Part shown: piece by piece, positions 25,376-46,198 of the stretch
Layout: every line of letters begins with the position of its first letter
Position numbering within the stretch: position 1 is the stretch's first letter
Assembly (NCBI GenBank): GCA_023954715.1
Contig: JAGSHD010000001.1
Location: 428,468 to 492,467, forward strand
Direction: 5' to 3'
Length of the DNA stretch: 64,000 nucleotides
Origin: Candidatus Cloacimonadota bacterium
GTDB lineage: Bacteria; Muiribacteriota; UBA6191
Position numbers and translations under genes: made by a program
The notes under the pieces: generated by a model
The model's input: the letters and a program-made list of their open reading frames with translations, nothing else
Told to the model about the DNA's origin: nothing
Database searches by the model: none

Positions 25376-26377
25376 TTACAAAATACCTTGTTTTTCTTCG
25401 AGGCTTAATAATAGATTTAATATTTCTTCTTTAGATAAGTAGGTAGAATGCTCAGAGTCATAAATACTCTTATCAATTGATTCATCTTTGTTTACGGTGT
25501 GTCCTACAATCAACATTTCAGTCTCTTCTTTGCAGTAAGGCAACTCATGTGCAAATAAAAGCTCTTCATGTAGTTTTTCGCCCTCACGTGTGCCCACAAT
25601 ATTTAAATCAACCGTTTTTAATCCTTTTAAAGAAGCATACTCTCCACGAATTACTTCAACAAGATCTAATACACGAATACATGGCATCTTAAGAATGAAT
25701 GTTTCTCCATATTTAGCTAATTGCCCTGCTTGTAAAACTAATGATACTGCTTTTTGTAAAGTCATCACAAAACGAGTCATATCAGCATGAGTCAAAGTAA
25801 TGGATTTACCCTCTCTTAATTGAGATAAAAACAAGGGAATCACTGAGCCGCGAGTACCTAAAACATTACCAAATCGAACACAAGAAAAGATTGTTTTTCG
25901 AGGCCCCTTGTAGCGATTTGCTGTACCCATCAGTTTTTCAGCCAGTAATTTAGTAGTACCCATAGTATTAATTGGGTTAACAACTTTATCAGTGGAGACT
26001 AAAATTACTTTTTTAACGCCTTTTTCCATGGCAACTTCAATGATATTTTGAGTCCCAATTACATTTGTTTTAACAGCTTCAAATGGATTAAACTCACAAG
26101 ACGGAACTTGCTTTAAAGCAGCTGCATTAAATACATAGTCTACGTTTTCCATTGCTAGTGACAATCGTGACTTATCTCGAATATCTCCCATCAAAAAACG
26201 AACTTTAGAGGTATCGTCTAACTCCTGATGAAAACAATATTGTTTGTATTCATCTCTAGACAAGACTCGAATAGAAGCAGGTTCATATTTCAAGACCTCT
26301 TGAACTAAAGCACGCCCGATAGAGCCGGTACCACCCGTGACCAATATTGTTTTACCTTTGAGATAATCTAAGCCCAT
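25376..26377 (-). CDS. pseB: UDP-N-acetylglucosamine 4,6-dehydratase (PseB/CapD/FlaA1 family)
   Basis: KTILVTGGTGSIGRAL Rossmann motif, 333-aa length, YxxxK region. Position in a nucleotide-sugar operon. Confidence 0.75.
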   Translation of the reverse strand: MGLDYLKGKTILVTGGTGSIGRALVQEVLKYEPASIRVLSRDEYKQYCFHQELDDTSKVRFLMGDIRDKSRLSLAMENVDYVFNAAALKQVPSCEFNPFEAVKTNVIGTQNIIEVAMEKGVKKVILVSTDKVVNPINTMGTTKLLAEKLMGTANRYKGPRKTIFSCVRFGNVLGTRGSVIPLFLSQLREGKSITLTHADMTRFVMTLQKAVSLVLQAGQLAKYGETFILKMPCIRVLDLVEVIRGEYASLKGLKTVDLNIVGTREGEKLHEELLFAHELPYCKEETEMLIVGHTVNKDESIDKSIYDSEHSTYLSKEEILNLLLSLEEKQGIL

Positions 26378-26378
26378 T

Positions 26379-27470
26379 TTAGCTCCGATCTAAGACCATT
26401 AAATTTGAGGGAGTATTCCCATTGTCTAAATGTACTAAAGTCCCTTTATTTTGGCAAGAATTATATATACAATCTATGACTTTTACAGCATCTAAACCAT
26501 CTTGAATTGTGGACTGATTGGGAGCCTTCGACTCGATGATATCAAGTAAATGTTTTAAACGACTTTTAAACGGATTGATGGCTGTTGGCAGCTCTAATTG
26601 CTTAGGCTTTAAAAACGGTGAGTTACTCGGCTTTTGAAAAAAGCTGATATTTCCGTGAGAATCAATCAATTTTGCTCTCTCCCATTGAATTTGTATTTCA
26701 AAATGAAAGTACCTTCTTCTTCCACCTACTAAAAAACTGCCTAATACATTGTTTTCAAAAAACATATTACCCAAACAAGTATCCTCAGTTAACAGATTTT
26801 TCTTTTCTTGGCTAGCCACTCCGTTTACGCTTAAAGGTCGTCCAGCATACCAAACCATCAAATCAAACAAATGAGTCCCATCATGCAATAGTGGGCCACC
26901 AAAGTAGCTTTTTTCTTTTTGCCCTTTTGATTTTTTTACAAAAGATCCACAATGAATTTCACCATGAATTGATTTCAATTTACCCAACCCTCTTTTATTG
27001 ATTAAACTTTTATAGAAAGAAAAACTAGAATAAAAACGCCGATCGTGGCAAACAACAACATTTAACCCCTTCAAAAGCTCTTGAATTTCAATAGCTTCTT
27101 TTGTATCCATCCCTACAGGTTTTTCTAATAGAACTCCAAAAACTTGATTAGATTTTGCATATTCAGCTACAATTTGACAAGATTCCAAATGAGCACTAGA
27201 GCTTGCACAGATTGAGATGATATTTGGTTTAAGCTCTTGTAAGATGTTTTTTAGATTTTTACTAGCAGTCTTAACTCCGGTATAACTCTCTTCAAACAAG
27301 TCGCATTGATTTTGATCTATATCATATCCACCGATCAAGTCTACTTCTTGATGATCAAAATAAGCCCCAGCATGTGTACAAGGAAAAGTTCGAAAGCTAT
27401 CCTGCTCCATAGTAAAAGCAATACGGCCCAATCCAATAACAAATGCTTTATACATATAATTCAGACTCAT
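26379..27470 (-). CDS. Gfo/Idh/MocA-family NAD(P)-dependent oxidoreductase
   Basis: N-terminal VIGLGRIA dinucleotide-binding motif and EKP catalytic-region motif (LLEKPVG). Confidence 0.65.
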   Translation of the reverse strand: MSLNYMYKAFVIGLGRIAFTMEQDSFRTFPCTHAGAYFDHQEVDLIGGYDIDQNQCDLFEESYTGVKTASKNLKNILQELKPNIISICASSSAHLESCQIVAEYAKSNQVFGVLLEKPVGMDTKEAIEIQELLKGLNVVVCHDRRFYSSFSFYKSLINKRGLGKLKSIHGEIHCGSFVKKSKGQKEKSYFGGPLLHDGTHLFDLMVWYAGRPLSVNGVASQEKKNLLTEDTCLGNMFFENNVLGSFLVGGRRRYFHFEIQIQWERAKLIDSHGNISFFQKPSNSPFLKPKQLELPTAINPFKSRLKHLLDIIESKAPNQSTIQDGLDAVKVIDCIYNSCQNKGTLVHLDNGNTPSNLMVLDRS

Positions 27471-28368
27471 ATTTCATCATAATTAAATGCTCATGCTCCA
27501 CTTCAAAACTACTAATTTTACGATCACAAGCCCACTCCAATAAATTTTGGCAAAAATCTAATCCAGCTGCAATTGTTAATGGGATTCCGCCTGAAAACCT
27601 TGGATTAATTTCAAGAAAATAGAACTCATTGTTATGCTCAATACACTGAATATTCCAGGGACCTTTTAATGCAAAATTTTGATTTATGGATTGAATCAAC
27701 TCAATCAATTTTTGATTCATACAAACATATCCAACATCAGATACCCCTGCTCGAACTTTATCTCGAACTCTGGGTAAAATATTTATTATATTGCAATCAT
27801 TATCACTGAATACATCAACAGTATACTCCTTACCATCAACCCATTTTTGTATAAAACCATTTGTCAGTCTAGGCCAAAACACATCTAACTCTGCATCTGA
27901 GTAAATCTTAAATTGATTTACTGACCCATAACCTAAATCTTCTTTTAAAACAGAAGGATAAGATTTAGACCCATTTTTTTGATAAATTTCAGGTACATTC
28001 AAACCGTGCTTTTTAAAAAACTCTGCTGACTCGGTTTTCGATAAAAACTTCTTTAATGTTGACCCAGAGTCTAAAACACGAACCTTTGAGTCAATAGGAT
28101 TACTTAGAAAATACTTTAAATCTAAATCACTCCCCGGAAGGATAAAATCAATTTGATACTTATCTAATACATCTTTCAATGCTTCATTAAAGTTTGCATG
28201 ATCCATTCTTGGCACCATTTCAAAATAATCACAAAATCGCAAAGATGGAGTATGCTCATAAATCTCAGTACCAACTAATTTTAATGGGATATCTAATTTT
28301 TTTGCCGCCTGTCTAAGAAGTTTAATTAAAGTGACTCTTCGGCCTGTGCTTGGGAGTAAAATATTCAT
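27448..28368 (-). CDS. ATP-grasp domain ligase
   Basis: C-terminal LEINPRFSGG and neighbouring KGPWNIQCIEHNNEFYFLE match the ATP-grasp fold (CPSase-like). Confidence 0.6.
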   Translation of the reverse strand: MNILLPSTGRRVTLIKLLRQAAKKLDIPLKLVGTEIYEHTPSLRFCDYFEMVPRMDHANFNEALKDVLDKYQIDFILPGSDLDLKYFLSNPIDSKVRVLDSGSTLKKFLSKTESAEFFKKHGLNVPEIYQKNGSKSYPSVLKEDLGYGSVNQFKIYSDAELDVFWPRLTNGFIQKWVDGKEYTVDVFSDNDCNIINILPRVRDKVRAGVSDVGYVCMNQKLIELIQSINQNFALKGPWNIQCIEHNNEFYFLEINPRFSGGIPLTIAAGLDFCQNLLEWACDRKISSFEVEHEHLIMMKYESELYV

Positions 28369-29282
28369 TGAGGATGGTCTTCTTTTTGAAAAGGGATGTC
28401 ACACTGTGCACAAAGCCCACTACATTTGCTGCTAGTCTTATTTAAAGAGAAGCTGTCTTTTCTAGCAATAAGCCACTTTCGTAGCGAAACCATTTCTTTT
28501 GAGTTCCAGGCATCCATAATGGGTATATTTTTACCTAATGGATAAATCCCATCAAAATCTACACAACAAGGAACAAAAGTGCCATCCCACAAAACGGCCA
28601 TGGACCTCCATGGATAAGAACATATATTGTATTGCTTAACCACATCCTCTGTTTTAAGACCATCTAAATATCCAATCCAGTTTCTGTATACTTTTACATT
28701 TAAATAGTCTGGATTGAGCAATTTCATTTGCTTTTTGAAATCCTCGATAAGATCTCTTGTTTCATCTAACTCTATTACCTCTATTGTAATTTCACAGCTA
28801 GATTTTAACTCATTTTTTAGCTCAATAACTCTTGTTATATTTGCTAAAGTTGTTTCATAATTACCATTTACTCTTAAGGACTCGTAAATCTCTTTATTTA
28901 CGCCTTCAAAAGAAATTGTTATATGTTGAATCCCCGTTTTTAAAAGAGCAATGGCCTTCTTTTCATTTAAAAAAGATGCATTGGTATTTAATCTACACTC
29001 CAAACCACGCTTTACAATTTCTTCAATCATAAAAAAGAGTTCTTTGTGCATTAAAGACTCACCCAAAAAGAACAAGTTAATCTTTTTAACTCCACAGTTA
29101 CATGCATCTTCTAAAAGATTTAAAAAGACTTCTCTCTCCATAAACCCTTTATCTCTAGTTTGATCTTTTTGAGGACAAAAAACACATGCTAAATTACAAT
29201 GATTGGTTGGTTCAATGAATAGTGTATAAGGTGCGTTGTCGCACACTGCTGATCGGTTTTTATATTTTTCCAGATTGTCCAT
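28365..29282 (-). CDS. Radical SAM enzyme with a SPASM-like C-terminal Cys cluster
   Basis: IEPTNHCNLACVFCPQ is a canonical Cx3Cx2C. C-terminus carries CCVDFDG...CSGLCAQC. Confidence 0.7.
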   Translation of the reverse strand: MDNLEKYKNRSAVCDNAPYTLFIEPTNHCNLACVFCPQKDQTRDKGFMEREVFLNLLEDACNCGVKKINLFFLGESLMHKELFFMIEEIVKRGLECRLNTNASFLNEKKAIALLKTGIQHITISFEGVNKEIYESLRVNGNYETTLANITRVIELKNELKSSCEITIEVIELDETRDLIEDFKKQMKLLNPDYLNVKVYRNWIGYLDGLKTEDVVKQYNICSYPWRSMAVLWDGTFVPCCVDFDGIYPLGKNIPIMDAWNSKEMVSLRKWLIARKDSFSLNKTSSKCSGLCAQCDIPFQKEDHPQ

Positions 29283-30210
29283 GTTGAATTATTAGATCTA
29301 CTACAAGCTTTGTAGAGTCTTCTCCGTTTAGTTTTTGAAAGTGCTTTACTATACTATCGACATCTTCTATTTCAAAGACTTCATTTATAGCTTTTATCAA
29401 TTGAGTTTCGTCAAAATTATGGTGTAAACCAAAGTATTGCCCCAATTTATGATGAACCAAGTTTAATGCTGTTGTTTCTTGCTCTTGATTTTGCGCAATC
29501 ATTAACGGAATACAGCCTGACTTTAAAGCCTCGTACGCTGTAATTCCTCCTGAGCAAATAATCACCTTATAGGCTCCCATAAATAATGAAAGCTGTTTTA
29601 CATTTTCTAAAAAAGTTAGTTTTGGAAAAGCCTCTTTTAAAAAATGTCTACGCTTTTGGGTAAACCCAGGACCAATCACAATATCTAAATTATCCATAGA
29701 ACATTTTTTTAAAAACTGCTCTGTTATCTCATTGGGGTCTGATCCCCCAAAACTCAGTAATACTTTATTATTTTTTACCTGTTTTTTTATACCGCGTCCA
29801 AAGACAAAATACTTTACACCGATATACTCTACTCTTTGATTTAAATTAAGAACTTGATGATCTAACCCTAGTAAAGTACTACAAATATGAACATCAACCA
29901 AATACCGAAGATCAGATAATTCATCTATGGCTATTGTAGTAATCTCATCTACTGCTGAGTAAAATGACTTTGGAAACTCAGGCTCATCTATAATTAAAAC
30001 ATCAGCAGACTTACAGAGCTTCAAAAACTCTTTTTCTGAATCAATATGTAATGCAGTAAAATCAAGTAAAAGCATAGCTTTTTGTGAATGAAAATGTACA
30101 AAAAGAACTTCGTATCCTTTGTAAGCTAGCTCTTTGGCAATGACTTCCAATCTCTTTAAATGACCAAAGCCGATCGAGACACTAGCCTCTGTCTTTAGCA
30201 AAAACTTCAT
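29260..30210 (-). CDS. PseG/SpsG-like UDP-sugar hydrolase (MurG-like GT-B fold)
   Basis: SIGFGHLKRLEVIAKEL matches the GxGHxxR signature of the PseG family. 316 aa. Confidence 0.5.
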   Translation of the reverse strand: MKFLLKTEASVSIGFGHLKRLEVIAKELAYKGYEVLFVHFHSQKAMLLLDFTALHIDSEKEFLKLCKSADVLIIDEPEFPKSFYSAVDEITTIAIDELSDLRYLVDVHICSTLLGLDHQVLNLNQRVEYIGVKYFVFGRGIKKQVKNNKVLLSFGGSDPNEITEQFLKKCSMDNLDIVIGPGFTQKRRHFLKEAFPKLTFLENVKQLSLFMGAYKVIICSGGITAYEALKSGCIPLMIAQNQEQETTALNLVHHKLGQYFGLHHNFDETQLIKAINEVFEIEDVDSIVKHFQKLNGEDSTKLVVDLIIQHGQSGKI

Positions 30211-30920
30211 ACTCTATTTTGCTCTACTTGACGATTCATTTCAAATATATTGGGTTTGCTTTGAAACAGCTCTGCTATTTCTTTTATAGAAATTTCATAA
30301 GGGTCTTTTTGTAAAGTTGTACAAATAGCTCGAACCATATCTAAGTCTAATTGCTCATCAATCGTCAATCGCAAATCAGACAAAGACTTATATTTTTGTC
30401 TAAAAACTCCGCATTTATAGATATCTTGCCTTTGATAATAAGCACAAGTCACATGCTCTTTTTGAAAGTCATCTTGTTTATCCTGCGCTTGTTTTAAAAA
30501 GCTTTTTTTAGTTAATATTTCAAAGCTACAACCCAAAGGTAAATCAACATTTAAAATACGATCTAAATTTACGCTTTTCATTTGATCTAACATGGCTAGA
30601 TAGTCACTCACTTCAACAAATGGATTGTCTCCTGTTACCCTTGCGAAATATGGAGTCTTGAGATTTTTTACTACATCTAAAAACCTCTGAAAAACATTTT
30701 CTTCACTTCCCCTATAAACAGTAATATTTCGATCTTTACAAAATACTTCTAGCTCATCATCTTGCTTAGAGTCAGATGTTAAAATAATAGTATTATGATG
30801 ATTAATCCTATGAACTATGTTTTCGATCAAAGACTCTTTGTATAGTTTCATCAAAACTTTCTTAGGAAGTCTCTTAGAGCCTAATCTAGCTTGTACTAGA
30901 AAAGTAATTTCTTCACTCAT
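30207..30920 (-). CDS. CMP-nonulosonic-acid cytidylyltransferase family (PseF/SpsF/NeuA-like)
   Basis: N-terminal ARLGSKRLPKKVL motif is typical of this family. First gene of the minus-strand operon. Confidence 0.65.
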   Translation of the reverse strand: MSEEITFLVQARLGSKRLPKKVLMKLYKESLIENIVHRINHHNTIILTSDSKQDDELEVFCKDRNITVYRGSEENVFQRFLDVVKNLKTPYFARVTGDNPFVEVSDYLAMLDQMKSVNLDRILNVDLPLGCSFEILTKKSFLKQAQDKQDDFQKEHVTCAYYQRQDIYKCGVFRQKYKSLSDLRLTIDEQLDLDMVRAICTTLQKDPYEISIKEIAELFQSKPNIFEMNRQVEQNRV

Positions 30921-31303
30921 AGTTTAATCCCTAGGCTTAGTTTAACAAATACAAAATCTTTAGTTTTCAATCAAGTGATGCTCTATCACTTAGACTTACA
31001 AAGATAAACGCATCAATATTTATAGTCAATTTTTCATTTTCAGAGAAACATCTTTCTCTTCCCAAAAAAAATTAAGAGTTTGCATTTAGGTCTAACTTAT
31101 AAACTAAATTCATGACAACAATTGCAAAAGAATTCATTTCTTCAGCTCGGATAATTTTAATAAATAAGCTTTTAGTGTAAAATCTTTAAGTCTCTTTTTT
31201 GAATAGTTACAAATTTACCGTAAGAAAATATATTCATTAGAGGATATTGAAATTTCGACACCCAAGCATTCGATTTTTAATTTTAAAAGGCAGGACATGT
31301 TTT

Positions 31304-32698
31304 ATGTTACCAAGATTCTATATACTTCAAGATGATGAACAACTTCTTACCCAAACTTTTGGTAAAAAGTCAGTAATCAACGGTCCAAAAGTCTATTTCA
31401 AACCTCCTACTACCTCTATAATTGAAAGAAGAAGAGGTATTTCTCTTTCTTCTAAACAATTTATACATGTTAGAAACGCTCTTAGTGGAGAGATTACAAT
31501 GAAAACAGGGCCTTGCTTTTACTTTTTGGAGTCCCAAGAAAAGATCGAGTCCGCTGGTGAAGCCTTACCTCTTGCTGTTGATGAATATACTTATGTTAGA
31601 AATAATAGTACGGGTAAAACAACCGTAGTCAAAGGTGAATGCTCCTATATGCTACAACCCCATGAAAGTTTTTTAGGCAACTCCTTTAAAGCCACTCAGA
31701 TCGATGACCTTACAGCAGTCATTGTACGTAACATTGCTAATGGTAGCCTCAAACTAATCACTGAGTCACAAACCTTTATGCCACAAGATGATGAAGAAAT
31801 CACTGAAGTAGTAAACAAAATTCGACTAGAAGAACACGAATTAATGGTCTTGATTGATAACGAGGGTAAATATCATTTTTATTCTGGTCTTGGCGAGGAT
31901 AGCTCCTTTTTCATTCCACCTCACTGGAAACCACTCGTATGCCAATGGTCTTCTGGTTTGTTAAAGGAGTCTCGAAATTTAAAAATCTCTCGTTTTGATA
32001 TACGTCCTAAATTCATGTGGTATGAGTTTGAGGTTCGTACAAAAGACAATGTTGAACTCATCTTAAAAGTAACTTTCTTTTGGCAAATAGTTGATGTAAA
32101 CACCTTGGTAAAAAATACAGACGATGCCCCTGGGGATGTTTGTGCTCATGCTAGATCCTTGATTATACAAAAAGTTTCTAATGTGGAGTTTTCTGATTTT
32201 TTATCTCGTTTCAATGAGCTAGTACATGAGGCCATTTTTGGACAAGAGGATAGTTTTTATTCTTCTAGAGGAATAAAAATTCACTCGGTAGAAGCTAGAG
32301 AAATAGCCTGTAAAGATCAAAGAACCCAAGACGTATTAACAGAAATCATTCAAGAGACAACATCTCGTATCAACAGGATACAAAAGCAAGTTTCACAAAA
32401 TGAAGTCTCTATGAAGCAACTTGAAGGTAAACTCTTAGAAGAAGAAAATGCTATGAAATTAGCCAAAATGAAAGCGAAAAGAGTTGAAGAGGAAGGACGC
32501 ATAGAAGGACTTAAAAAAGCTAAAATCATCTCAAGCTTTATGGAGGGTTTAGGTTCAGAGTTGAGCCTGAGTCAAAAGGTTCAAATGTATGAAAATCTAA
32601 ACAAAAAAGAAAGTCTACAAACTTTAGCCAATGGCAATACCAAGATGTTTCTTACTCATGATGATATTCAAATGAAGTTAGAAATCAAAGAACCCTAA
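31304..32698 (+). CDS. Bacterial major-vault-protein-like protein: about five MVP (vault) repeats, an SPFH-like shoulder domain and a coiled-coil cap-helix
   Basis: Tandem repeats of about 40 aa fit the vault-repeat pattern Y.hV.N..tG......GP..y.L.P.E (FIHVRNALSGEITMKTGPCFYFLESQE; YTYVRNNSTGKTTVVKGECSYMLQPHE; AVIVRNIANGSLKLITESQTFMPQDDE). A band-7/SPFH-like block follows (RFDIRPKFMWYEFEVRTKDNVELILKVTFFWQIVD). A heptad-rich coiled coil of about 100 aa ends the protein. Start chosen at the ATG at 31304 (AGGA 8 nt upstream) rather than the TTG at 31247. Confidence 0.65.
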   Translation: MLPRFYILQDDEQLLTQTFGKKSVINGPKVYFKPPTTSIIERRRGISLSSKQFIHVRNALSGEITMKTGPCFYFLESQEKIESAGEALPLAVDEYTYVRNNSTGKTTVVKGECSYMLQPHESFLGNSFKATQIDDLTAVIVRNIANGSLKLITESQTFMPQDDEEITEVVNKIRLEEHELMVLIDNEGKYHFYSGLGEDSSFFIPPHWKPLVCQWSSGLLKESRNLKISRFDIRPKFMWYEFEVRTKDNVELILKVTFFWQIVDVNTLVKNTDDAPGDVCAHARSLIIQKVSNVEFSDFLSRFNELVHEAIFGQEDSFYSSRGIKIHSVEAREIACKDQRTQDVLTEIIQETTSRINRIQKQVSQNEVSMKQLEGKLLEEENAMKLAKMKAKRVEEEGRIEGLKKAKIISSFMEGLGSELSLSQKVQMYENLNKKESLQTLANGNTKMFLTHDDIQMKLEIKEP

Positions 32699-33718: not shown

Positions 33719-33841
33719 CATTTTTTGATAAAATTCGTAGTAATATATAGCAAAGTAAAATTTTACTTACAATTTAAAATACACAAACACCTTTAACTCC
33801 TTTTATAAGTGGGTATAGAGTATTTATATCATAGGTTTTTT

Positions 33842-35293
33842 ATGAAGTTTTTTATTTTTATTATCTTATCAGTCAGTCTTTGCACCTTTGCCGAAACTGA
33901 TTATTTTGGATTAAGCACAGAAACTACTGATTATTTTGGTGATATCGCAAAAAGTGGTAGCACTTCTAACGATTTTGTTCTAGTTGTAGAAAAAGACGAC
34001 AATCAATATGACTCTGATGATGACTACTTTCAAAATGACTCAGACGATAGTTCAGATACATCAAACAAGAGTGATTATATTGATGAGCAAATCAAAGAAG
34101 CTAAACAACTCAACACCAAGAAAAAGTTTATAGAAGCATTAGACCTATTGAGAGTCTTAAACTTTCAAGTGGACTTTAATAATATCAAGGCTCAATATTA
34201 CTTTGCTCGACAATATTTGATTGTGATAGGCAACAAAGCAATCCAATCTGATGAGTATAGACTTTATTTTAAAAAAGCGAAACATCATATTAAAAAGATA
34301 GAGACCCACATTGAAAACGGAAATGTATCACGAAGTGAAAAGTCTAACTATGAAAAAAAGGTGAGAGAACTAAAACTACTCTATTCTAAATTGCTTCCAA
34401 AATCATCGAAGCCTCGACCTAGTAACTCTTCTAACGACAATAACGATACAGATGTTAACTCACCCAATGGAGACACATTTTATGATAATGATGCAGCAGA
34501 CGATGATGACGATGTTGTAGCAAATTTAAATGATAACGAAATCTCACAAGACAATTTAGCTGCTAGTAAAGCCCCTATTTATAACTTACAATTGAGTAGT
34601 GCCGATCAGATTGACTCACAACACGCTAAGACGATTTTAGATGCAATGGGACTAACAGGATCTAATAGTGTTCATAAATTAAGTTACTCCAATGCTTTGG
34701 CCGCTGTTTGTAACGGAAAAACCTACGGGAGTTATCGACGGTCTTATACTGGACCAAACGGCACGGGCTGTAAAGGGATCGGGTTAAACGATAAAAAGCT
34801 ACACAAATATCACCGAACAGCAACTATGAAGCAATACCTCTTTGAAGAGTATCAACTTTTACGGACTGCTGTAATTAAATATAAAGCATATCCAGTTATC
34901 AGTTATAAAGATACACCTAAACTCTATGAAAATTGGATTAATAAAGCAGCAGCAGAGTTAACTTCTGTTCCTCAATCTAAAAGAGTTGCGCTTTTACAAT
35001 CTCAACTTAGAGAAGAAAGTGGCCGTGCTCACTGGAGAAACTTTCGACCGATTGCGTCTCAAGCCGGTGCGGTTGGAGTTGCTCAACTACTTCCTGCAAC
35101 TGCAATTATATCATCAAAAGTTAATCCTTATGACCCAGAAGGAAACTTTGTTGGTGGTGCGAAATATTTAAACAAAATGATTAAAAACCACGGTTCAATC
35201 AAAAGTGGATTGGCTGCATACAATGGTGGTGGCGGTAATGTAAATGCTGCTGGCCCTCAACGATATGCAAGAAACATCACTTCTAGGATGTAA
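33842..35293 (+). CDS. Secreted protein with an acidic low-complexity N-terminal region and a C-terminal lytic transglycosylase (SLT) domain
   Basis: Signal peptide MKFFIFIILSVSLCTFA starts at the ATG at 33842. C-terminal ES...AGAVGVAQLLPATA...GLAAYNGG are SLT catalytic Glu and family motifs. Two DYFG repeats and D-rich stretches lie in between. Confidence 0.7.
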   Translation: MKFFIFIILSVSLCTFAETDYFGLSTETTDYFGDIAKSGSTSNDFVLVVEKDDNQYDSDDDYFQNDSDDSSDTSNKSDYIDEQIKEAKQLNTKKKFIEALDLLRVLNFQVDFNNIKAQYYFARQYLIVIGNKAIQSDEYRLYFKKAKHHIKKIETHIENGNVSRSEKSNYEKKVRELKLLYSKLLPKSSKPRPSNSSNDNNDTDVNSPNGDTFYDNDAADDDDDVVANLNDNEISQDNLAASKAPIYNLQLSSADQIDSQHAKTILDAMGLTGSNSVHKLSYSNALAAVCNGKTYGSYRRSYTGPNGTGCKGIGLNDKKLHKYHRTATMKQYLFEEYQLLRTAVIKYKAYPVISYKDTPKLYENWINKAAAELTSVPQSKRVALLQSQLREESGRAHWRNFRPIASQAGAVGVAQLLPATAIISSKVNPYDPEGNFVGGAKYLNKMIKNHGSIKSGLAAYNGGGGNVNAAGPQRYARNITSRM

Positions 35294-35295
35294 TT

Positions 35296-36096
35296 ATGAG
35301 AAAATTGTTATTCCCTCTTTTATTTAGTATTGTAAGCAGCTCTAGTTTTACTGATCCCCAATCAGACCTTTTAGCTAAGTACAACCTTGTTTATCAACAG
35401 ACTGATAAAACAGGCTTACTAAACTTTACTAAAAATCAGCAATCGGTAGAGCTTAGTAAACATAAAAATTATGATTTGATTCAAAGTGAAGAAGTAGCTA
35501 TCGCCAACGATGAAAAGCTGCTCTTTTTAGTCTGGAAAAGCAAAGTCAAAAATGCTTATGCTTTTTTAGAAGGATACCGTTTTAACAAAAGCTTAAATAA
35601 GGCAACTCGTGTAGCTTTACCCAAGGTATTTAACTCTGAACTCTTAAATGGTGATATCAAACTAAGCAAAGCCAATGAAGACCTTCTAATAAGTGTAAAG
35701 TATCAAATATACTCCTACTTTCTTGATGATGAGGGTGTTTTTCACAGAGTTAGCTATAAAATCGATAAAGTCACCGGAAAGTTCAAATTTCATAAGCATA
35801 AAGTTGATCATGGCAAAACAAGCCACGATTATTTTAACTTAGCTGGGTTTTATTCTGATCATAAAAAAATCAAAACTAGCCTAAAGTATTTTGAGTTGGC
35901 TCTAGATGAAAACTATAGTGACGAAAAGCAAATCGATAAAGCTCATTTAGCCCACTTAAATTTTGAATATGCTAAAGCACTCATTAAAGACAAACAAGCT
36001 AATAAAGCCAAGGTTATTTTACAGAAAGTAGCTCAAGAGTTTTCTGATGTACAATTTGGTAAAGATGCTAAAAAGCTTCTTGAGCAAACAAAGTAA
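35296..36096 (+). CDS. Secreted hypothetical protein with TPR-like C-terminal helices
   Basis: Signal peptide MRKLLFPLLFSIVSSSS. Lies 3 nt after the SLT gene stop, so probably cotranscribed. Confidence 0.5.
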   Translation: MRKLLFPLLFSIVSSSSFTDPQSDLLAKYNLVYQQTDKTGLLNFTKNQQSVELSKHKNYDLIQSEEVAIANDEKLLFLVWKSKVKNAYAFLEGYRFNKSLNKATRVALPKVFNSELLNGDIKLSKANEDLLISVKYQIYSYFLDDEGVFHRVSYKIDKVTGKFKFHKHKVDHGKTSHDYFNLAGFYSDHKKIKTSLKYFELALDENYSDEKQIDKAHLAHLNFEYAKALIKDKQANKAKVILQKVAQEFSDVQFGKDAKKLLEQTK

Positions 36097-36100
36097 GCAA

Positions 36101-37486
36101 TTATTTAGTTTGCTTTAAAATCCATTTTTTTAGGATAGCTAGTACTTTAGGAGAGATTGTCTCTTCAATAGTGGAGTACTCTGAAACAGCCCCAGTTTTT
36201 GCTGTTTGAAACAAATGATTTACACCATCGATAAGCTCATATTGAACATGTGAGTTATTCGCCTCTTTAAACGACTCTTTAATACTTGGTAAGTTTAGGT
36301 CTATATCTACTTGCTGATCGAGTGTTCCGTTCATAACTAAAACTGGTATTTTCACTTTTTTCAGATATTTACTTGGTTCAAAAGTTAAAAAAAACTTCAT
36401 CCATGGGTTAGCTAAGGCTACATAAATTGATTGCAGATAATTTTTTGCATCCATATCTTGCCCAAATTCTTTTTTGAAAATTGCTGTATAATCTAAAGTC
36501 ATTGGTGTTAGCGATTTAACAAAATCTGCCTCCGATGCAGACGATTGAATCAAAGGTAGAGCTCCATCAAAAATCTTTTCATTTCCATAATGAATTTTTA
36601 AATCTACTCCTTTGTTGATATGTAATTGCTTACGCTGAAAAGACAATACCTTGTGTCCATTAACGCCCATCCCAGCCATCATAACGATAAAAGACAATTT
36701 AGGCTCTAAGTCTGCTGCTAGCATACTAACAATGCTAGCACCTTCGCTATGCCCAATCATACCAATATTTTGGGTATCGATATCTTTTCTTTTCAAAAAG
36801 TAATTTACAGCCCCTCTAGCATCATTTGCAAAATTCAAAGTATTTGCTTTTGAAAAGTCTCCTTTTGATCTAGCTACACCCCGATCATCATATCGAAACA
36901 CAGCAATCCCCGATTTTGTTAAAAAATCAGCTAATACAGCAAAAGGTTTATGATTCAAGATGGTTTCATCTCTATCTTGAGGGCCACTTCCTGACACTAA
37001 TATCACTAAGGGTGGTATTTCTTTGCTTTTAGGATGGGTCAATGTCCCAGATAATAAATCTGTTTCTCCCTTAAATTGAAGTTCTTCGATAAGATAATCA
37101 AAAGGTGGTTTAGGAGTCTGAGGACGTAGTTCAACAACAGCTTTACCCCTTGCTAGCTCAAATGTACCAAAAACGGAGCTTTGGCTATATTTTCCAGTAA
37201 TCTGTTGCCCTTCAATTTTACCTTCAAAGCTTGGATCCCCTGTGATCCCTTTTAATTTAAAAGATACATTATTGTCATCTAAAACAAGTTGATCCAAGCC
37301 AATATCTTTTGCTCCTTGTGAGATAATATCCATCGACCCAACTAGTCGAGATGACTTATCCTTTAAAAACTGAGCTGATATCTTTAACTCAATCCCTGAA
37401 ACAGAGATTTTACCCTGCCAATTTCCAAATATGTCATTTGAAAAGTTATTCATAATCACACCTAAAAATAACAGTAAGCTAATCAT
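36101..37486 (-). CDS. Alpha/beta-hydrolase fold protein with a GHSEG nucleophile elbow
   Basis: MIGHSEGAS GxSxG motif. 461 aa. Immediately downstream of DUF885 on the same strand. Confidence 0.65.
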   Translation of the reverse strand: MISLLLFLGVIMNNFSNDIFGNWQGKISVSGIELKISAQFLKDKSSRLVGSMDIISQGAKDIGLDQLVLDDNNVSFKLKGITGDPSFEGKIEGQQITGKYSQSSVFGTFELARGKAVVELRPQTPKPPFDYLIEELQFKGETDLLSGTLTHPKSKEIPPLVILVSGSGPQDRDETILNHKPFAVLADFLTKSGIAVFRYDDRGVARSKGDFSKANTLNFANDARGAVNYFLKRKDIDTQNIGMIGHSEGASIVSMLAADLEPKLSFIVMMAGMGVNGHKVLSFQRKQLHINKGVDLKIHYGNEKIFDGALPLIQSSASEADFVKSLTPMTLDYTAIFKKEFGQDMDAKNYLQSIYVALANPWMKFFLTFEPSKYLKKVKIPVLVMNGTLDQQVDIDLNLPSIKESFKEANNSHVQYELIDGVNHLFQTAKTGAVSEYSTIEETISPKVLAILKKWILKQTK

Positions 37487-39175
37487 CTAGTTTTTACCGA
37501 AATCAATGTCATTCATGACTTCTTCTAGTACTTTTAAAGGAAGAGCCCCGTGACATAGCAACTCATGATGAAACTTTTTAATATCAAAACTATCTTGATG
37601 CTTTTCTTGAAGTTTCTTGCGAAGGTTCATGATAAATATTTCACCCATTTTGTAAGATAGTGCCTGTCCAGGCATTACAATGTAACGATCAATCTCCACT
37701 TCAATATTTTCTTTGGATAGGCAGGTATTGTTTACCATATAATCAATAGCTTCTTGTCTACCCCATCCTTTATGATGAATCCCGGTATCAACTACTAATC
37801 GAGAAGCACGCCAAACTTCAAAGGATAATTTACCAAATCGAGCTTCAGGAGTTTTGTAAAAACCCATTTCTTCAGATAGTTTTTCTGTATATAAAGCCCA
37901 ACCCTCAACATAAGCTGTCTCGTTATATCTTTTTCTAAATTCTGGGATCCCTTGTAACTCTTGTGCAATAGAGATCTGAAAGTGATGACCTGGTACTGCT
38001 TCATGAAAAGCTAAGGCTTCTGCATTATGCTTACCTCTTGTTTGTGGGTTGTAAGTATTTACAAAATAAACACCAGGTCTTGCCGTCTTACTATCTCCTG
38101 GCATATAAAATGCATCTGGTGCTTCTTTTTCTTGATACTCGGGTAAAGGCTGTACCTCATAAAGGTTTTTTGGTAAGACCGAAAAGTATTTAGGTAGTTC
38201 TTTTTCCATTTCTTTTAACAATGCCGTGTGATGCTCTACTATTTCTTCTCGAGAGCTATAATGTAGATCTTTATTGCCACGCATTGATTCAAAAAAGTCA
38301 TTTAATGAACCACTGAGTCCCATCTCTTTTTGAATACTCTCCATTTCGCTATGGATTCTTGCCACTTCTTGTAAACCAATTTCATGAATCTCTTGAGGTG
38401 CTATATCTAAGGTCGTATTTTGCTTTACTTTTAAAGCATAGTAATCATCGCCACCGGGTAAATTACATAGTCCAATGCTTTCTCTTGTATATTGTAAATA
38501 AGTCTTTCTTAAATATTTAACTAATCTTTTTAATGGACGATTTACATGCTTAGACACAGCCTCTTGAAGCTGAGAGTTTACTTTAGATTTTTGGTTTTTT
38601 GCTAATACAGAAAAGCTCTTTGACGCTGTTAGAAAGTAAGTACTTTTTTGAGGATCATTAGTAATCATTTTTTCAATTTGAGCAATAACTAAAAGTGTAA
38701 TATTAGTTGGTAGTACCCACTGTCGCACAATCCCTCGATGTAAATGTCTTTGAACTTGTTTAACCTGTTTACTAAAACCCTTTAGTCTTGAAAGATAGTC
38801 TTCAAAGTCCTTTTTATCTCTAAAAGGATGAACATTAGCAATTTGTAAAAAGCTAGTATGTACTCCACCCATTTGCGATAATGCCAAGTGATGAGAAGGA
38901 ACATCTAAATATGCACGAGAACTCTTCACATCTTCTAAAAATAGACTTCTAGAGATTTTCTCTTCTGTATCTAAACTGGCAACATCAACATTTTGTACTT
39001 TTTTATAGTATTTCTCTAGGGTCTGATGAGACTTAAATCCACTTTTTAAACCGTAACTCTCTAACTTAGAGTTATAATCATATACCCCATAAAAAGTTGC
39101 CATAGAAGGAGAATTTTGCAAGGACAAATCCCAGTAGCTATCAAAAATATTGTTTAGTTTCATGTGAGGCTCCAT
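37487..39175 (-). CDS. DUF885-family (M3/M32-like) putative metallopeptidase
   Basis: AFHEAVPGHHFQ is the characteristic DUF885 HExxH-like motif. 562 aa. Confidence 0.65.
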   Translation of the reverse strand: MEPHMKLNNIFDSYWDLSLQNSPSMATFYGVYDYNSKLESYGLKSGFKSHQTLEKYYKKVQNVDVASLDTEEKISRSLFLEDVKSSRAYLDVPSHHLALSQMGGVHTSFLQIANVHPFRDKKDFEDYLSRLKGFSKQVKQVQRHLHRGIVRQWVLPTNITLLVIAQIEKMITNDPQKSTYFLTASKSFSVLAKNQKSKVNSQLQEAVSKHVNRPLKRLVKYLRKTYLQYTRESIGLCNLPGGDDYYALKVKQNTTLDIAPQEIHEIGLQEVARIHSEMESIQKEMGLSGSLNDFFESMRGNKDLHYSSREEIVEHHTALLKEMEKELPKYFSVLPKNLYEVQPLPEYQEKEAPDAFYMPGDSKTARPGVYFVNTYNPQTRGKHNAEALAFHEAVPGHHFQISIAQELQGIPEFRKRYNETAYVEGWALYTEKLSEEMGFYKTPEARFGKLSFEVWRASRLVVDTGIHHKGWGRQEAIDYMVNNTCLSKENIEVEIDRYIVMPGQALSYKMGEIFIMNLRKKLQEKHQDSFDIKKFHHELLCHGALPLKVLEEVMNDIDFGKN

Positions 39176-39317: not shown

Positions 39318-41984
39318 TTAAAGTCTTCTACCTCGAGTGGCAAAGTCACTTGTTTGTAAGCGGCCGATTCTAGCTTTTGGATCTAGTTGTTTTTTAATTT
39401 TTCCTAAGTCTACGCCTAAATTTTTCAATTCAGTACTATAATCTCCAACTAAGTAATTCAATGCTTTTCGATCTTTTCTATCCATGCCAGCAATACTTTT
39501 AAAGGACTCTTCTACCATTTGAGCTACTTTATATCGTGAAAACCCATGAGATTGGACAGAAATAGATTTTGCTAAACGATTTTGAATAAATCCCTTCTTA
39601 TAAAATACTTCAATCAATTTCAAAGACTGAGTTTGATCTACTTGTGCAATAGACTCTTCTTTGTAAGATCTTGCCTTAGCTAGATTTTTTCTTTGCTCTG
39701 CTTCTTGACCAATAAACCTTGTAGAAATCATTGTTGTTCTACCATTTCTAAGGTAGTTGCCATCCATATCAGTGATATTAGGAGATACATAAAACTGAAA
39801 GTCTGACTTATCAGGTATACGTTGAAAGGAGCTAAAAAACAATTCCTTTCCACTCTTAGAAATATCAACTTTTCCCTTGTAGCTGTAGTTTGCTCCTTTT
39901 AAGAAAAACTCATCTCTGTTTAAAGACTTTGCATTTATCTTGCGATTAAAACGCACAACAATTTGTTGAGTACTTGAGTCCATAACCTTCTTAGGAAAGT
40001 TCTGAATCAAAAATGGAGTTGTATAAGTTGTTTTAAATTTAATAATGTTCTTTCCGGTTAAAGACGCACCATCACTTGTTTTTAAATCCTTTGATACTTT
40101 AACAGTAAAAATAGAAGCTTCTCCCAAATTTCGATATGGTTTAAGATTTAAAATTTGATCATTTTTCTCAAAGTTTAACTCTCCAGCTACTAGCTTACCT
40201 TTATTATATAATTGTAAAGACTGGGATGATACTGTAGCAGGGTCAATTTTTTGGTTAAATTTAACTCGCACCATAGCGTTTACAGGTACTTTTCTAGATC
40301 TATTTTTAGGAAATATTTTTTCTATCTCAAGATTTTGAATCTGTCTAGGTGGAATTCTTTTAGCTAAAGTTGGTCTACGAACTGACTGCAATTGTCCCAT
40401 TGTAGTGAAGTTAAACTCCGCTCTACCTGCCACTACTCTATATTTCATACCTTCTTTTAATTTATTTTTTGGTATAACATCTAATCTGTTTTGTGATTTT
40501 AGATATTTTGATTCAGAAGGAATCTCAACATCCCCTTCATATAGTTTAGCACTTAAATACCCTTCTTCTCCTTGATAGACCTCTCGTTTATAGATAAACG
40601 AAATCGGAGTATATAAAGCATTATTTTTAGAATCTAAACTCGGTATGGTTGCTAAAAGCATATCAGGGTTTTTTCTTGTGTAATACTCTTTCATAGAAAC
40701 AGGTTTTTTTGGAGTTGTTTCTGCAAGTTTTGAAAAGTCTACTGCTTCTGGTTCTTTTACTCTTTCACTTTCTATTTTTTCAAAAACGCTTTGTGATGTC
40801 TTTTCATTTAATGCTTGCATTGGAGAAGCTGTATCTTCAACTGCAGTAATCACTGGTGGATTATTTGAGTTTATAATTCCAGTTTGAGCTGGTTCTTCTT
40901 CTAAAAACTTTAAATCAAAGCCATGAGAATCAAAATTTACTTTTGGTGTATTTACTTGACTTGCCATTTCAACTTTTTCTTCTTTGATTCTCTTGTAAGT
41001 TTTTTCAAAGTTTTCTAAATTTTTAGTTTTGATTTCATTAATCTTTACTTTTAATTCAGAAAACTGCCCTTCTGAGTTAATTTTTTTCCAAGAATCTTGA
41101 AACTCTTTTGTAATTTTCACTTGTTTTATACCAAAAACCCCATGTTCTTGGCAGTCAAAAACTAAATTCATGTTGGAGATCTTTGGCATACTCGCTTCAA
41201 AATCACCTTTACTCACTTGAAATGTCTGATATGTATCTAAATCAAAGTAATAGATTTGAGAATGACCCGATCGATTAGAGTCAAAAAAGATTCCGTAACC
41301 ATTTTCTGAAAACACGGGATGAGCAGAAACTGTTTCTTCTTGCGTTAATTGCATGGGTACAGATCGTTCTAGCTCGATATTTTTTAAAAATAAATTGAAA
41401 GTTTTGTTTCTAAAAGAAGTGTAAACCAACAATCTACCATCGGGAGAATAAGATGGATAAAAGTCGTGATTACCAAAAACTGTTCGTTGAATTTTACTTT
41501 GATCTTTTAATGAATAACTCCATATATCAAAGTTTCCAGACTCATCAGAATCAAAAGATACTTCATTTCCATCAGGTGAAAAAACTGGATGATAGGCATT
41601 AAAGTCGCCCATGGTTATTTGCTTTGGAGAACTGGAGCTTTTTAAGGATTTTACAAATACATGTGACTTTCCTCGAACCATGTTGGTATATACTATTTGC
41701 TTATCATCATAACTAAAAGATGGGCTATCAATTTTACCTTGAATCCCCTTAACTTTTATTCCTTCTGATTTATCGCCTAAATACTTAATCCACAACTCCG
41801 AGTTTCCTCCGAGGTCCTTTATATAAGCTAAAATCTTCCCATTGTGAGATAAGGCGCCACTACTAGTTTTACTAGTACCTGAGGTTAACCATTTATACTC
41901 TATCTCTTGAGATACCCCGTGATTTATAAATATCAAAAATAATATTGAGCTTAATATAGATATTGTTTGAGTAAGCTTTATCAT
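39318..41984 (-). CDS. Secreted TolB-like WD40 beta-propeller protein fused to a long Ig-like/beta-rich C-terminal region
   Basis: Repeated PxFSPDG...DIWxx blades (PVFSPDGNEVSFDSDESGNFDIWSY; PSYSPDGRLLVYTS). Signal peptide MIKLTQTISILSSILFLIF starts at the ATG at 41984, so the track start at 42014 is likely over-extended. Confidence 0.65.
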   Translation of the reverse strand: MIKLTQTISILSSILFLIFINHGVSQEIEYKWLTSGTSKTSSGALSHNGKILAYIKDLGGNSELWIKYLGDKSEGIKVKGIQGKIDSPSFSYDDKQIVYTNMVRGKSHVFVKSLKSSSSPKQITMGDFNAYHPVFSPDGNEVSFDSDESGNFDIWSYSLKDQSKIQRTVFGNHDFYPSYSPDGRLLVYTSFRNKTFNLFLKNIELERSVPMQLTQEETVSAHPVFSENGYGIFFDSNRSGHSQIYYFDLDTYQTFQVSKGDFEASMPKISNMNLVFDCQEHGVFGIKQVKITKEFQDSWKKINSEGQFSELKVKINEIKTKNLENFEKTYKRIKEEKVEMASQVNTPKVNFDSHGFDLKFLEEEPAQTGIINSNNPPVITAVEDTASPMQALNEKTSQSVFEKIESERVKEPEAVDFSKLAETTPKKPVSMKEYYTRKNPDMLLATIPSLDSKNNALYTPISFIYKREVYQGEEGYLSAKLYEGDVEIPSESKYLKSQNRLDVIPKNKLKEGMKYRVVAGRAEFNFTTMGQLQSVRRPTLAKRIPPRQIQNLEIEKIFPKNRSRKVPVNAMVRVKFNQKIDPATVSSQSLQLYNKGKLVAGELNFEKNDQILNLKPYRNLGEASIFTVKVSKDLKTSDGASLTGKNIIKFKTTYTTPFLIQNFPKKVMDSSTQQIVVRFNRKINAKSLNRDEFFLKGANYSYKGKVDISKSGKELFFSSFQRIPDKSDFQFYVSPNITDMDGNYLRNGRTTMISTRFIGQEAEQRKNLAKARSYKEESIAQVDQTQSLKLIEVFYKKGFIQNRLAKSISVQSHGFSRYKVAQMVEESFKSIAGMDRKDRKALNYLVGDYSTELKNLGVDLGKIKKQLDPKARIGRLQTSDFATRGRRL

Positions 41985-42334
41985 TTGTGCCCTCCGAATA
42001 TGGCAGTCATACATTTTACTACCTTATCGGCCACTTTTTGTATTACTTTCACTATTTGAATGAAAAGAACTGAGCTTGAAATCGATAATTTAAATTGATA
42101 GTTTTTAAATTGAACTTATATTAATAGTCGCTTCAACAAATGCTAAAAAACTACTGTTTCTGCATGTTACTTTAATCATAAATTCTATTTCGAATTTAAT
42201 TTTTATGTTAGTATTTATAAAAACACAAGCATTTTGAACTCTATCCAATCTCAACTTCTTACGCAGTTCATATCCACAATTTAGATAAAAAACTTTATAG
42301 AGACAATGCTCCAATAAACTTATAGGACAACCTC

Positions 42335-43001: not shown

Positions 43002-44174
43002 TTAAGGTCTAAAAGTTTTACGCTTGATTTTAAAAGCTTTAGCCAGAACTTCAGCAGCAGCTGCAAAAAGAGTCTCTGAGATTTCTTGATTTAGTCCTAC
43101 TTGACGATAGAGCGCTCTTGCAAGCGGCTTATCCTCTATGATTGGTACGTCATTCTCACGTGCAATCTCTTTAATCTTATGAGCTATAATATTTTGTCCT
43201 TTAGCTACAACAACAGGAGCCGCAAAACCAGACTCCCTATCGTACTTTAAAGCAACAGCAAAATGAGTCGGGTTGGTTACCACGACATCGGCCTTAGGGA
43301 CCTCAGACATCATGTTACCTTGTGCCATCTCCATTTGCTTTTGTCGAATTTTAGCCTTTACTTGTGGGTCCCCATCCGTTTGCTTTCTCTCTTCTTTTAC
43401 TTCTTGCTTGGACATTTTTAAATCTTCGTTTGTTTTCCACTTTTGATACATCAAATCAAACAAACCATAAATAACCAAAACCAAGCCCATTTCAATAATC
43501 AAACGCACCATTAACCAAGCAATATAGTCCAAGGCATGGCCAATGGTCTCACCAAACAGTGCAGTCATCGTAGGATATTCATTGATAAACATTTTATAAG
43601 GAAAGTATCCTAAAATTACAAGCTTAATCAAAGACTTAGCTAATTCAACTAAAGCTTGTTTACCAATGATTTTTTTCATCCCATTTACAGGATTAAATCT
43701 CTGTAAATCTGGGGTCATGGATTCTGTAGAAAAATTAATCCCTACTTGTGAAATCTGAACGGTCATGGTTAAAATTATAACCACAAAAAATAATGGGCCC
43801 ATGATCAAGTACCAATATAAAATAATATCTAAAAAATAGATCCACATATCATTGGCTGTCATTTCTTGTACTTCAAACATTCGTAAGGAGCGATTAAACA
43901 TGTCACCAACGGCACCATAAAAACGCGGTAACATCATATAAACAAAAATCGTTAAAATCATTAAGTTTATTGCAGAGTTTAGATCCTCACTTTTGGGTAT
44001 GTTTCCCTTTTTTCGTGCATCAGCTTTACGCTTATCTGTCGGCTCTTCTGTTTTTTCCCCAGCGCTTTCTTCGAACTGAGTTAAATTTAATGGAAGCAGT
44101 AAGTCTAAGCTATCTAACTCTAAAGCAAATTGGTTTAGTTTATGGCCGCTGATATGTCTTTGATCTACTATCAT
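43002..44174 (-). CDS. flhB: Flagellar export-gate protein FlhB
   Basis: EKTEEPTDKRKADARKKGNIPKSEDL N-terminal signature, four TM helices, and the NPTHFAVALKY autocleavage motif. Confidence 0.85.
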   Translation of the reverse strand: MIVDQRHISGHKLNQFALELDSLDLLLPLNLTQFEESAGEKTEEPTDKRKADARKKGNIPKSEDLNSAINLMILTIFVYMMLPRFYGAVGDMFNRSLRMFEVQEMTANDMWIYFLDIILYWYLIMGPLFFVVIILTMTVQISQVGINFSTESMTPDLQRFNPVNGMKKIIGKQALVELAKSLIKLVILGYFPYKMFINEYPTMTALFGETIGHALDYIAWLMVRLIIEMGLVLVIYGLFDLMYQKWKTNEDLKMSKQEVKEERKQTDGDPQVKAKIRQKQMEMAQGNMMSEVPKADVVVTNPTHFAVALKYDRESGFAAPVVVAKGQNIIAHKIKEIARENDVPIIEDKPLARALYRQVGLNQEISETLFAAAAEVLAKAFKIKRKTFRP

Positions 44175-44938
44175 ACGAAATTACCTAAAAACGACGCCAT
44201 ATCTTTAAAGGAGTTGCCATACAATGCCTTTATCAGATTTACCATAAAAGGTAAAATAATAATATAAGTTACCATTCCAACTACAATTTGAAGAGGAATA
44301 CCTACCATAAAAATGTTTAGCTTAGGCATAGTTCTAGCCAAAACTCCCAATGCAAAATTAATCATAAATAATGGTGCTAAAATAGGTAAACTAATTTGTA
44401 CTGCTATTAAAAATATCTTATAAAAAGTATGAATCAAAATTGGAATACCTGTTACCTCAAAGGAAAACTCTCCTAAAGGAATAACAAAGTAGGAGTTTTG
44501 GTATGCATTAAAGACATAATGATGACCATCAATTACCAAAAATAAAAATGTCGCCAATGTAGAATTAAACTGCCCCATTGTAGTAGATCCCTCACCACTA
44601 GCAGGGTCAACAGCAGTTGCTATAGATAAACCCATTGGAGTCGAAATAATCGAACCTGAAAAGTTTAAAACTTCATTGACCAAAGCTACATTTAGTCCAA
44701 TTAATACACCAACAGCAAACTCTTTAACGCTGATGATCACTAGAGTTACATCATCCACAATAGGTACAAAAGTGTCTATTGGGATAGTAAAAAAGATAGA
44801 TAAACTTACCAAAAAGGCCATAAAAGCCTTAGCTTTAACAGGAAAGTTATTACTCGAAATCAAAGGAGTCATCATCAAAACTCCAACAAAACGAATAAAG
44901 CACAAAAAGAAGTTAATTATCGTTTCTACAGAGTCCAT
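44171..44938 (-). CDS. fliR: Flagellar export-gate protein FliR
   Basis: 255-aa polytopic membrane protein directly between fliQ and flhB with overlapping stop/start codons. Confidence 0.8.
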   Translation of the reverse strand: MDSVETIINFFLCFIRFVGVLMMTPLISSNNFPVKAKAFMAFLVSLSIFFTIPIDTFVPIVDDVTLVIISVKEFAVGVLIGLNVALVNEVLNFSGSIISTPMGLSIATAVDPASGEGSTTMGQFNSTLATFLFLVIDGHHYVFNAYQNSYFVIPLGEFSFEVTGIPILIHTFYKIFLIAVQISLPILAPLFMINFALGVLARTMPKLNIFMVGIPLQIVVGMVTYIIILPFMVNLIKALYGNSFKDMASFLGNFV

Positions 44939-45207
44939 TATCCGATGTATAAGTCGATATTTTCAATTAGATTAATGGCCCAGGTACTAATCTTAGATAT
45001 CATCCAAGGCCCCAATGCAATCACCGTACTCATCGTTGCTACTACTTTTGGAATAAATGTCAGGGTTTGCTCTTGTAAAGAAGTAGTTGTTTGAAAAACA
45101 GAAACAGCTAGTCCAACAACCAGACCTACTAACAAAGGAGGCAAGCCAACTAACATGGCCATCCACATGGTATCTTTTACTAAATTCATTGCAACTAGTT
45201 CGTTCAT
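44938..45207 (-). CDS. fliQ: Flagellar export-gate protein FliQ
   Basis: 89 aa with two TM helices. Position between fliP and fliR. Confidence 0.8.
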   Translation of the reverse strand: MNELVAMNLVKDTMWMAMLVGLPPLLVGLVVGLAVSVFQTTTSLQEQTLTFIPKVVATMSTVIALGPWMISKISTWAINLIENIDLYIG

Positions 45208-46079: not shown

Positions 46080-46198
46080 ACAAAAACGTAAAGATTTGGT
46101 AAACTTTTGTCGATGTACTGAATTTATCCTATTTTTTAGAGGATCGCAAGGATTAAATAATCCTATGATCAAAATAGAGCTATCTATAAGCAAATAGA

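Follow-up and report, generated by a model that had tools for sequence, protein, structure and literature searches.

We examined a 64,000-nucleotide (nt) stretch of DNA (contig JAGSHD010000001.1; hereafter, the window) from an uncultured lineage whose metagenome-assembled genome (MAG) is labelled Cloacimonetes/Cloacimonadota, and which carries a gene for a protein resembling the major vault protein (MVP) of eukaryotes. Three genes follow this MVP-like gene on the same strand, coding for an M28 peptidase, a protein with an SLT domain and a 266-residue third protein, and a sugar-nucleotide cluster and flagellar export genes lie upstream and downstream, respectively (Table 1). The product is identical to NCBI MCO4781036.1, deposited as 'hypothetical protein [Candidatus Cloacimonetes bacterium]' and encoded on a 600,611-bp contig (exact look-up). 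The open reading frame (ORF) listing of the window places the start of the MVP-like gene at a TTG (31247..32698, +), a candidate that we rejected. The ATG at 31304 is the supported start because the closest homologues are exactly 464 residues long, the N-terminus of the family is conserved from that methionine (consensus MxxPxxYxL...EQLL in the alignment of homologues) and a Shine-Dalgarno-like AGGCAGGA precedes it. The gene is real and maintained under strong purifying selection, with a dN/dS of 0.06 against the 83%-identical orthologue of a sister lineage (locus L001; one pair tested). The upstream intergenic region is not conserved, measuring 384 bp in the window versus only 84 bp in the sister lineage.

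Table 1. Coordinates of the MVP-like gene, the parts of its product and other features of the window
Feature	Position	Strand	Residues	Remarks
Sugar-nucleotide cluster	25376-30920	-		Polysacc_synt_2 dehydratase, GFO/IDH/MocA oxidoreductase, ATP-grasp, radical-SAM+SPASM, 316-aa protein without Pfam match, CMP-type cytidylyltransferase
Shine-Dalgarno-like AGGCAGGA	31288..31295	+		8 nt before ATG 31304; read directly from the sequence
MVP-like gene	31304..32698	+	1-464	464 aa plus stop
Repeat a	31304..31435	+	1-44	divergent first vault-type repeat; five-strand module (AlphaFold2); hhalign 55-70% to b and c
Repeat b	31436..31561	+	45-86	canonical; ~human MVP R5; hhalign b-c 98.9%, b-d 97.5%; repeat-HMM E 1.2e-15
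Repeat c	31562..31690	+	87-129	canonical; ~human MVP R6; Vault_4 match at 87-121, E 6.5e-11
Repeat d	31691..31816	+	130-171	canonical; ~human MVP R7; repeat-HMM E 6.2e-14
Repeat e	31817..31987	+	172-228	last repeat, larger and divergent; ~human R8+R9, large deletions
Shoulder	31988..32317	+	229-338	SPFH/Band-7 alpha/beta fold; most conserved part of the family; = human MVP 514-647 (hhalign)
Cap-helix equivalent	32318..32548	+	339-415	one continuous 77-residue helix (AlphaFold2); 339-397 = human MVP 648-717 (hhalign)
Second helix and C-terminal motif	32567..32695	+	422-443 (helix)	helix from AlphaFold2; strand-like motif, consensus FFTPxDVDLxIE
SLT-domain gene	33809-35293	+	416-490 (SLT)	SLT C-terminal, Pfam E 1.7e-10
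Third downstream gene	35296-36096	+		266 aa; sub-threshold TPR/HAT matches only
Flagellar export genes FlhB/FliR/FliP	43002-46193			downstream of the MVP-like gene

Domain architecture and homology to the major vault protein

The AlphaFold2 model of the MVP-like protein, a single chain built on 53 family sequences, has a mean predicted local distance difference test score (pLDDT) of 85.9 and begins with five small beta-strand modules (repeats a to e). We tested for internal repetition by dividing the family alignment where the modules meet and running hhalign between the profiles of the pieces. Repeats b, c and d proved mutually homologous (probability 94-99%, E 1e-7 to 1e-17), and the vault-repeat motif (aromatic-x-h-V-R-N...G......G-P/E..y.L.P.E) can be read directly in all three; repeats a and e are divergent (40-79%). 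A first-pass annotation of the DNA had proposed about five tandem repeats of the vault type, and the five predicted modules, three clearly homologous and two divergent, bear this out. The N-terminal tip of repeat a is strongly conserved, its first 20 residues being among the better conserved of the repeat region, and repeat e terminates in a conserved WSSGLxKxxRxL loop. Beyond the repeats, the predicted chain continues into an SPFH/Band-7-like shoulder, a long uninterrupted helix and a shorter second helix, as the annotation had also proposed for the shoulder and the long helix. The C-terminal motif is disordered in the monomer model (pLDDT <50 over residues 443-452 and 454-464), and column conservation recovers at residues 441-460.

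Profile and fold searches both led to MVP. Pfam matches above the curated cut-offs comprised not only Band_7 (residues 227-343, E 6.2e-9) but also Vault_4 in repeat c and MVP_shoulder (residues 235-317, E 1.6e-7, 31.8 bits against a cut-off of 25); when human MVP itself is searched, Vault_4 falls on R8 and Vault_3 on R9. Thus, the profile searches did not score SPFH alone. A sequence search of the whole PDB returned eukaryotic MVP as its six best matches, one of them aligning residues 61-407 to rat MVP 353-692, and reached stomatin only at E~0.2. In a Foldseek search of the PDB with the model, the top 12 matches were all MVP structures (E 3e-24 to 2.6e-19), which leaves standing the claim that the N-terminal repeats adopt the MVP module fold; the SPFH cages (HflK/C, stomatin, prohibitin, erlin and flotillin) and a murine MVP R1-R7 fragment followed at ~1e-9. 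Identity to MVP in the fold-search alignments is only 17-18%. When we aligned the family profile with hhalign to human MVP (the sequence of the PDB entry, identical over 893 residues), the match had a probability of 98.5% (E 2.5e-15) and ran collinearly from the repeats through the shoulder to the cap helix, pairing residues 21-397 with human MVP 194-717. The MVP-like protein is therefore almost certainly a true MVP homologue with the MVP fold and, to judge from its sequence, a short-form member of the MVP branch of the SPFH superfamily.

Eukaryotic MVP (rat and human; PDB 4V60, 9BW5 and 9R86) is thus the best match of the bacterial protein in both sequence and fold, and its parts come in the same order, with vault beta repeats leading to an SPFH shoulder and a cap helix. 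The three-part MVP architecture at roughly half size that had been claimed for the gene is accordingly what we find, in 464 residues as opposed to the 861-893 of rat and human MVP. The two differ in repeat number, with nine in eukaryotic MVP and five (three canonical, two divergent) in the bacterial protein, where human R8 and R9 have collapsed into the single repeat e. The PARP4-binding repeats R3-R5 have no conserved counterpart in the bacterial protein, and a context with vault RNA, TEP1 or PARP4 is not known for it. Both proteins lack a membrane anchor. Hydropathy and sequence inspection found in the MVP-like protein no signal peptide, leader, transmembrane segment, hairpin or lipidation site; its maximum 19-residue Kyte-Doolittle hydropathy (1.19) falls inside an SPFH beta strand, its N-terminus is a polar vault repeat, and the maximum is similarly low across 120 homologues (median 1.21). 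From these features the protein is predicted to be soluble and cytoplasmic.

Size and distribution of the bacterial family

When we searched 1.84 billion representatives with a profile, we recovered 306 clusters (50% identity) of the family at E<=1e-30 and 788 at E<=1e-10, with members spanning ~460-960 residues. Counting canonical repeats with a hidden Markov model (HMM) built from repeats b-d, we found 3 to 11 per protein in 285 sampled proteins, and the three-match form of ~464 residues was the commonest (130 of the 285). The family is widespread in bacteria yet patchy, and its members vary in repeat number only. Conservation across the family is highest in the shoulder (DxRPKFMWYEF..RT.DNVEL..TFFWQI..TDDAPGDxCxHARS) and where the helix begins, and 48 alignment columns do not vary among 53 sequences of several phyla. 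Among species-representative genomes (one genome per species) the family was present in 77 of 185,579, a lower bound obtained with a two-motif scan, so that 'rare' was a fair description of vault-like proteins in bacteria. The hosts include four named Herpetosiphon species, further Herpetosiphon and Herpetosiphonaceae isolates and MAGs, Oscillochloris and many Chloroflexota MAGs, as well as Riflebacteria/Ozemobacter, Sericytochromatia, Elusimicrobia, Muiribacteriota and Oligoflexales; the versions in filamentous cyanobacteria have ~550 residues. Several sources annotate family members as HflC/SPFH proteins.

The MVP kind is already known in bacteria, and the window protein is an additional member from an uncultured lineage. 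Herpetosiphon aurantiacus A9AUD4 was listed among putative bacterial MVP homologues and predicted in silico to fold and dock laterally like MVP (Daly, Sutherland-Smith and Penny, 2013; PMC3762200). The same protein (UniRef100_A9AUD4, WP_012187961, 462 residues) is an orthologue of the window protein, 43% identical over its full length. The first-pass description of such proteins as uncharacterised in bacteria holds for experiments, as our literature searches found no experimental study of any bacterial MVP, but not for the family itself, which Daly et al. had already reported. Long bacterial MVPs (Sokolskyi, 2019; bioRxiv 10.1101/872010) and phage MVPs (bioRxiv 10.1101/2023.11.10.566534) have also been described. 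The bacterial MVPs discussed in the literature are mostly long forms (average ~820 residues), and none of the bacterial MVP literature searched picks out the short form as the most frequent. A parallel by description comes from Asgard archaea, whose MVP homologues are likewise prokaryotic proteins with five repeats, a shoulder and a cap helix and were modelled as a small closed cup with an ipTM (the predicted template modelling score of the interface) of 0.525 (PMC12962969, 2026).

What vaults do has been unclear for about 40 years, and there is debate over whether they passed from eukaryotes to bacteria or had a prokaryotic or Asgard origin. The compact five-repeat MVP emerges here as a well-conserved bacterial family, with members in cultivable Herpetosiphon, Riflebacteria and filamentous cyanobacteria as well as in the uncultured lineage of the window. 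Because Herpetosiphon can be cultivated, it offers a tractable system for expression, electron microscopy and genetics of vault biology.

Proposed assembly and candidate ligand site

We propose that the MVP-like protein probably forms a cage, vault-like or SPFH-like, that lies free in the cytoplasm. By homology with MVP, HflK/C, stomatin, prohibitin and flotillin, copies would pack side by side through their repeats and shoulders, the long helices would form a parallel helical barrel and the conserved C-terminal strand would close the apex. The product would be a cup or closed cage whose five repeats, against nine in the eukaryotic vault, make it the shorter of the two, and the conserved N-terminal tip could join two cups at the waist or dock a cup on a partner. 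We infer lateral assembly because all of the solved proteins in our fold searches that combine an SPFH domain with a long helix form a large ring or cage, because the lone, exposed 77-residue helix of the model is unlikely to be stable by itself, and because the C-terminal motif, although conserved, lacks order in the monomer model, the pattern expected of a segment that folds on assembly.

The same observations bear on whether the protein could retain MVP-like domains without assembling, for example as a monomeric or dimeric protein that binds a ligand or nucleic acid. The strongest conservation falls on the shoulder patch (DxRPKFMWYEF...TFFWQI...TDDAPGDxCxHARS) rather than evenly over the lateral faces and could mark a binding site. 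The ring- or cage-forming habit of every solved protein of this layout, the probable instability of the isolated helix and the conserved, disordered C-terminus nevertheless make a non-assembling protein quite improbable.

We also considered a membrane scaffold like flotillin or HflK, in which an SPFH dome on the inner face of the cytoplasmic membrane would organise microdomains or regulate a membrane protease. The HflC/SPFH labels attached to family members would fit such a role, as would the fraction of eukaryotic vaults found associated with membranes in situ (PMC13100048). The membrane SPFH cages (HflK/C, stomatin, prohibitin, flotillin and QmcA) are, however, anchored in the membrane and lack vault repeats, whereas the MVP-like protein is free of hydrophobic segments, like its homologues has a low maximum hydropathy, and carries five vault repeats in the position of the anchor. 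In the Foldseek search, MVP structures also scored better than any SPFH cage, by 10 orders of magnitude or more, and no FtsH-, NfeD- or protease-type partner was conserved beside the gene at the 77 loci of the family. A membrane scaffold is therefore unlikely.

Several observations weigh against the soluble, vault-like cage that we favour. The structural model behind it is a single-chain prediction. The cap-helix equivalent has about half the length of that of eukaryotic MVP, ~77 (+22) residues versus ~156, and the sequence revealed no cap-ring equivalent, the C-terminus having a conserved motif of its own that does not align to the MVP cap-ring. No neighbour family was common across phyla at the 77 loci (Pfam on recurrent neighbours), and no cargo candidate emerged from them. 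Within the 64-kb window, Rfam at gathering thresholds matched no RNA family, vault-RNA-like or other. A Pfam scan of 34 window ORFs (every ORF of 120 residues or more from 985 to 57858 except short overlapping frames) yielded no TROVE, PARP or NACHT-like protein and no homologue of a minor vault component. Finally, the ligand pocket of human MVP is conserved only in part. That pocket binds NAD+/ADP-ribose between adjacent shoulders (residues from PMC12280208), and we mapped it through the alignments to rat MVP (PDB search) and human MVP (hhalign). R511~L226, D521~K236, K573~A281 and P565~D273 (human~bacterial) are not kept.

Four other pocket residues do keep their character, K506~K221, H509~R224, W545~W260 and F522~F237. 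The conserved basic and aromatic patch that includes a basic loop (K221 and R224) and W260 hints, speculatively, at a small-ligand site. Very little points to any specific cargo for the cage. A broader proposal, which we put forward only tentatively and with more doubt than confidence, is that the five-repeat, 464-residue form is the commonest prokaryotic MVP and self-assembles as a small, closed, cytoplasmic 'mini-vault' with a conserved ligand pocket in the shoulder. If true, the mini-vault would be the ancestral form, repeat duplication would have built the nine-repeat eukaryotic vault from it, and vault function would become genetically testable in a bacterium through cultivable Herpetosiphon.

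Neighbouring genes and the wider window

The first-pass annotation had also asked, as speculation, whether a vault-like or flotillin-like assembly organises or sequesters the lytic enzymes encoded next to it, perhaps for predation. The identities it gave to those enzymes hold in part. The M28 aminopeptidase carries the expected M28 domain (Pfam E 4.6e-29). The SLT domain of the second protein is likewise supported, but its 'long acidic tail' is not, since the acidic stretches are N-terminal and central and the SLT domain itself is C-terminal. The first ~400 residues of this protein include low-complexity stretches rich in Asp, Ser and Asn and matched no Pfam family above its cut-off; the likely true start of its gene is the ATG at 33842 (MKFFIFIILSVSLCTFA...). 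The third protein, described as a TPR lipoprotein, could not be confirmed as one: its TPR/HAT matches are sub-threshold, and its signal-like leader (MRKLLFPLLFSIVSSSSFTDPQ) contains no cysteine, so that by the lipobox rule it does not qualify as a lipoprotein.

A single module of vault-like protein, M28 peptidase, SLT protein and third protein would be consistent with their shared strand, with the gap of 39 bp, free of any predicted terminator, that separates the MVP-like gene from the M28 gene, and with the retention of the arrangement in the sister genome. Some hosts of the family, such as Herpetosiphon, are predatory bacteria, a lifestyle that would suit the proposal. The terminator and promoter scans are, however, uninformative, because they returned fewer matches than shuffled sequence. 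The M28, SLT and third proteins each have an N-terminal hydrophobic export leader, and the MVP-like protein has none; the trio would thus be exported to a different compartment from the cytoplasmic MVP-like protein. Distribution is equally unfavourable. After clustering the ORFs of 77 related loci with 8-kb flanks, we found homologues of the three genes near the MVP-like gene in only 1 of the 77 other genomes, that of the sister lineage, and in none of the remaining 76 loci. Searching all loci by tblastn with the window's M28, SLT, third-gene, cytidylyltransferase and hydrolase proteins gave matches in the sister lineage only. Even the next relatives (52-58% identity) already have different genes beside the MVP-like gene.

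Sampling of Riflebacteria-type loci showed that the neighbour sets a lineage does conserve consist of housekeeping genes. The recurrent families were an RNase J-like beta-CASP protein, alanine racemases, a pseudouridine synthase, G6PD/6PGL, a sigma-54 activator and an alpha/beta hydrolase. At the Riflebacteria-type loci L037-L041, L047 and L065, genes for G6PD, 6-phosphogluconolactonase and an RluA-type pseudouridine synthase stand directly 5' of the MVP-like gene on the same strand, and a sigma-54 activator follows it in loci of this type, a lineage-specific synteny. Because the trio recurs in the sister lineage only, the next relatives differ and the conserved neighbours are housekeeping genes, we conclude that the adjacency to the M28 and SLT genes is recent local synteny and not a functional module. 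The link to lytic enzymes is largely refuted by this missing co-occurrence, and we regard a joint module as highly improbable. For the window itself the gain is modest: a 'hypothetical protein' receives its correct annotation, and a tempting connection to lytic enzymes is removed.

The locus is part of an ordinary chromosome. A defence, phage or mobile origin was considered and rejected, as PADLOC, PHROGs and NCBIfam gave no match and neither did tblastn against phage and plasmid collections; a fold search of BFVD returned ordinary viral SPFH proteins only. The 64-kb window contains no tRNAs. Upstream of the MVP-like gene, the sugar-nucleotide cluster looks like a modified nonulosonic-acid pathway and, because the flagellar export genes FlhB/FliR/FliP lie downstream, may serve flagellin glycosylation.

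Other features of the window include an abundance of exported hydrolase-like genes, among them, besides the M28 gene, a DUF885 protein (37487-39175, -; E 1.2e-158) that adjoins an S33/S15-type alpha/beta hydrolase (36101-37486, -), an M23 peptidase (46199-47740) and a PD40/Big_5 protein (39318-42014). Two giant, adjacent ORFs (2487-9476, -, 2329 residues; 9721-16416, -, 2231 residues) matched no Pfam family at E<=1e-5. The gene at 50550-54848 (-) encodes a 1432-residue protein composed almost wholly of HEAT/PBS-lyase-type repeats behind an N-terminal zinc ribbon.

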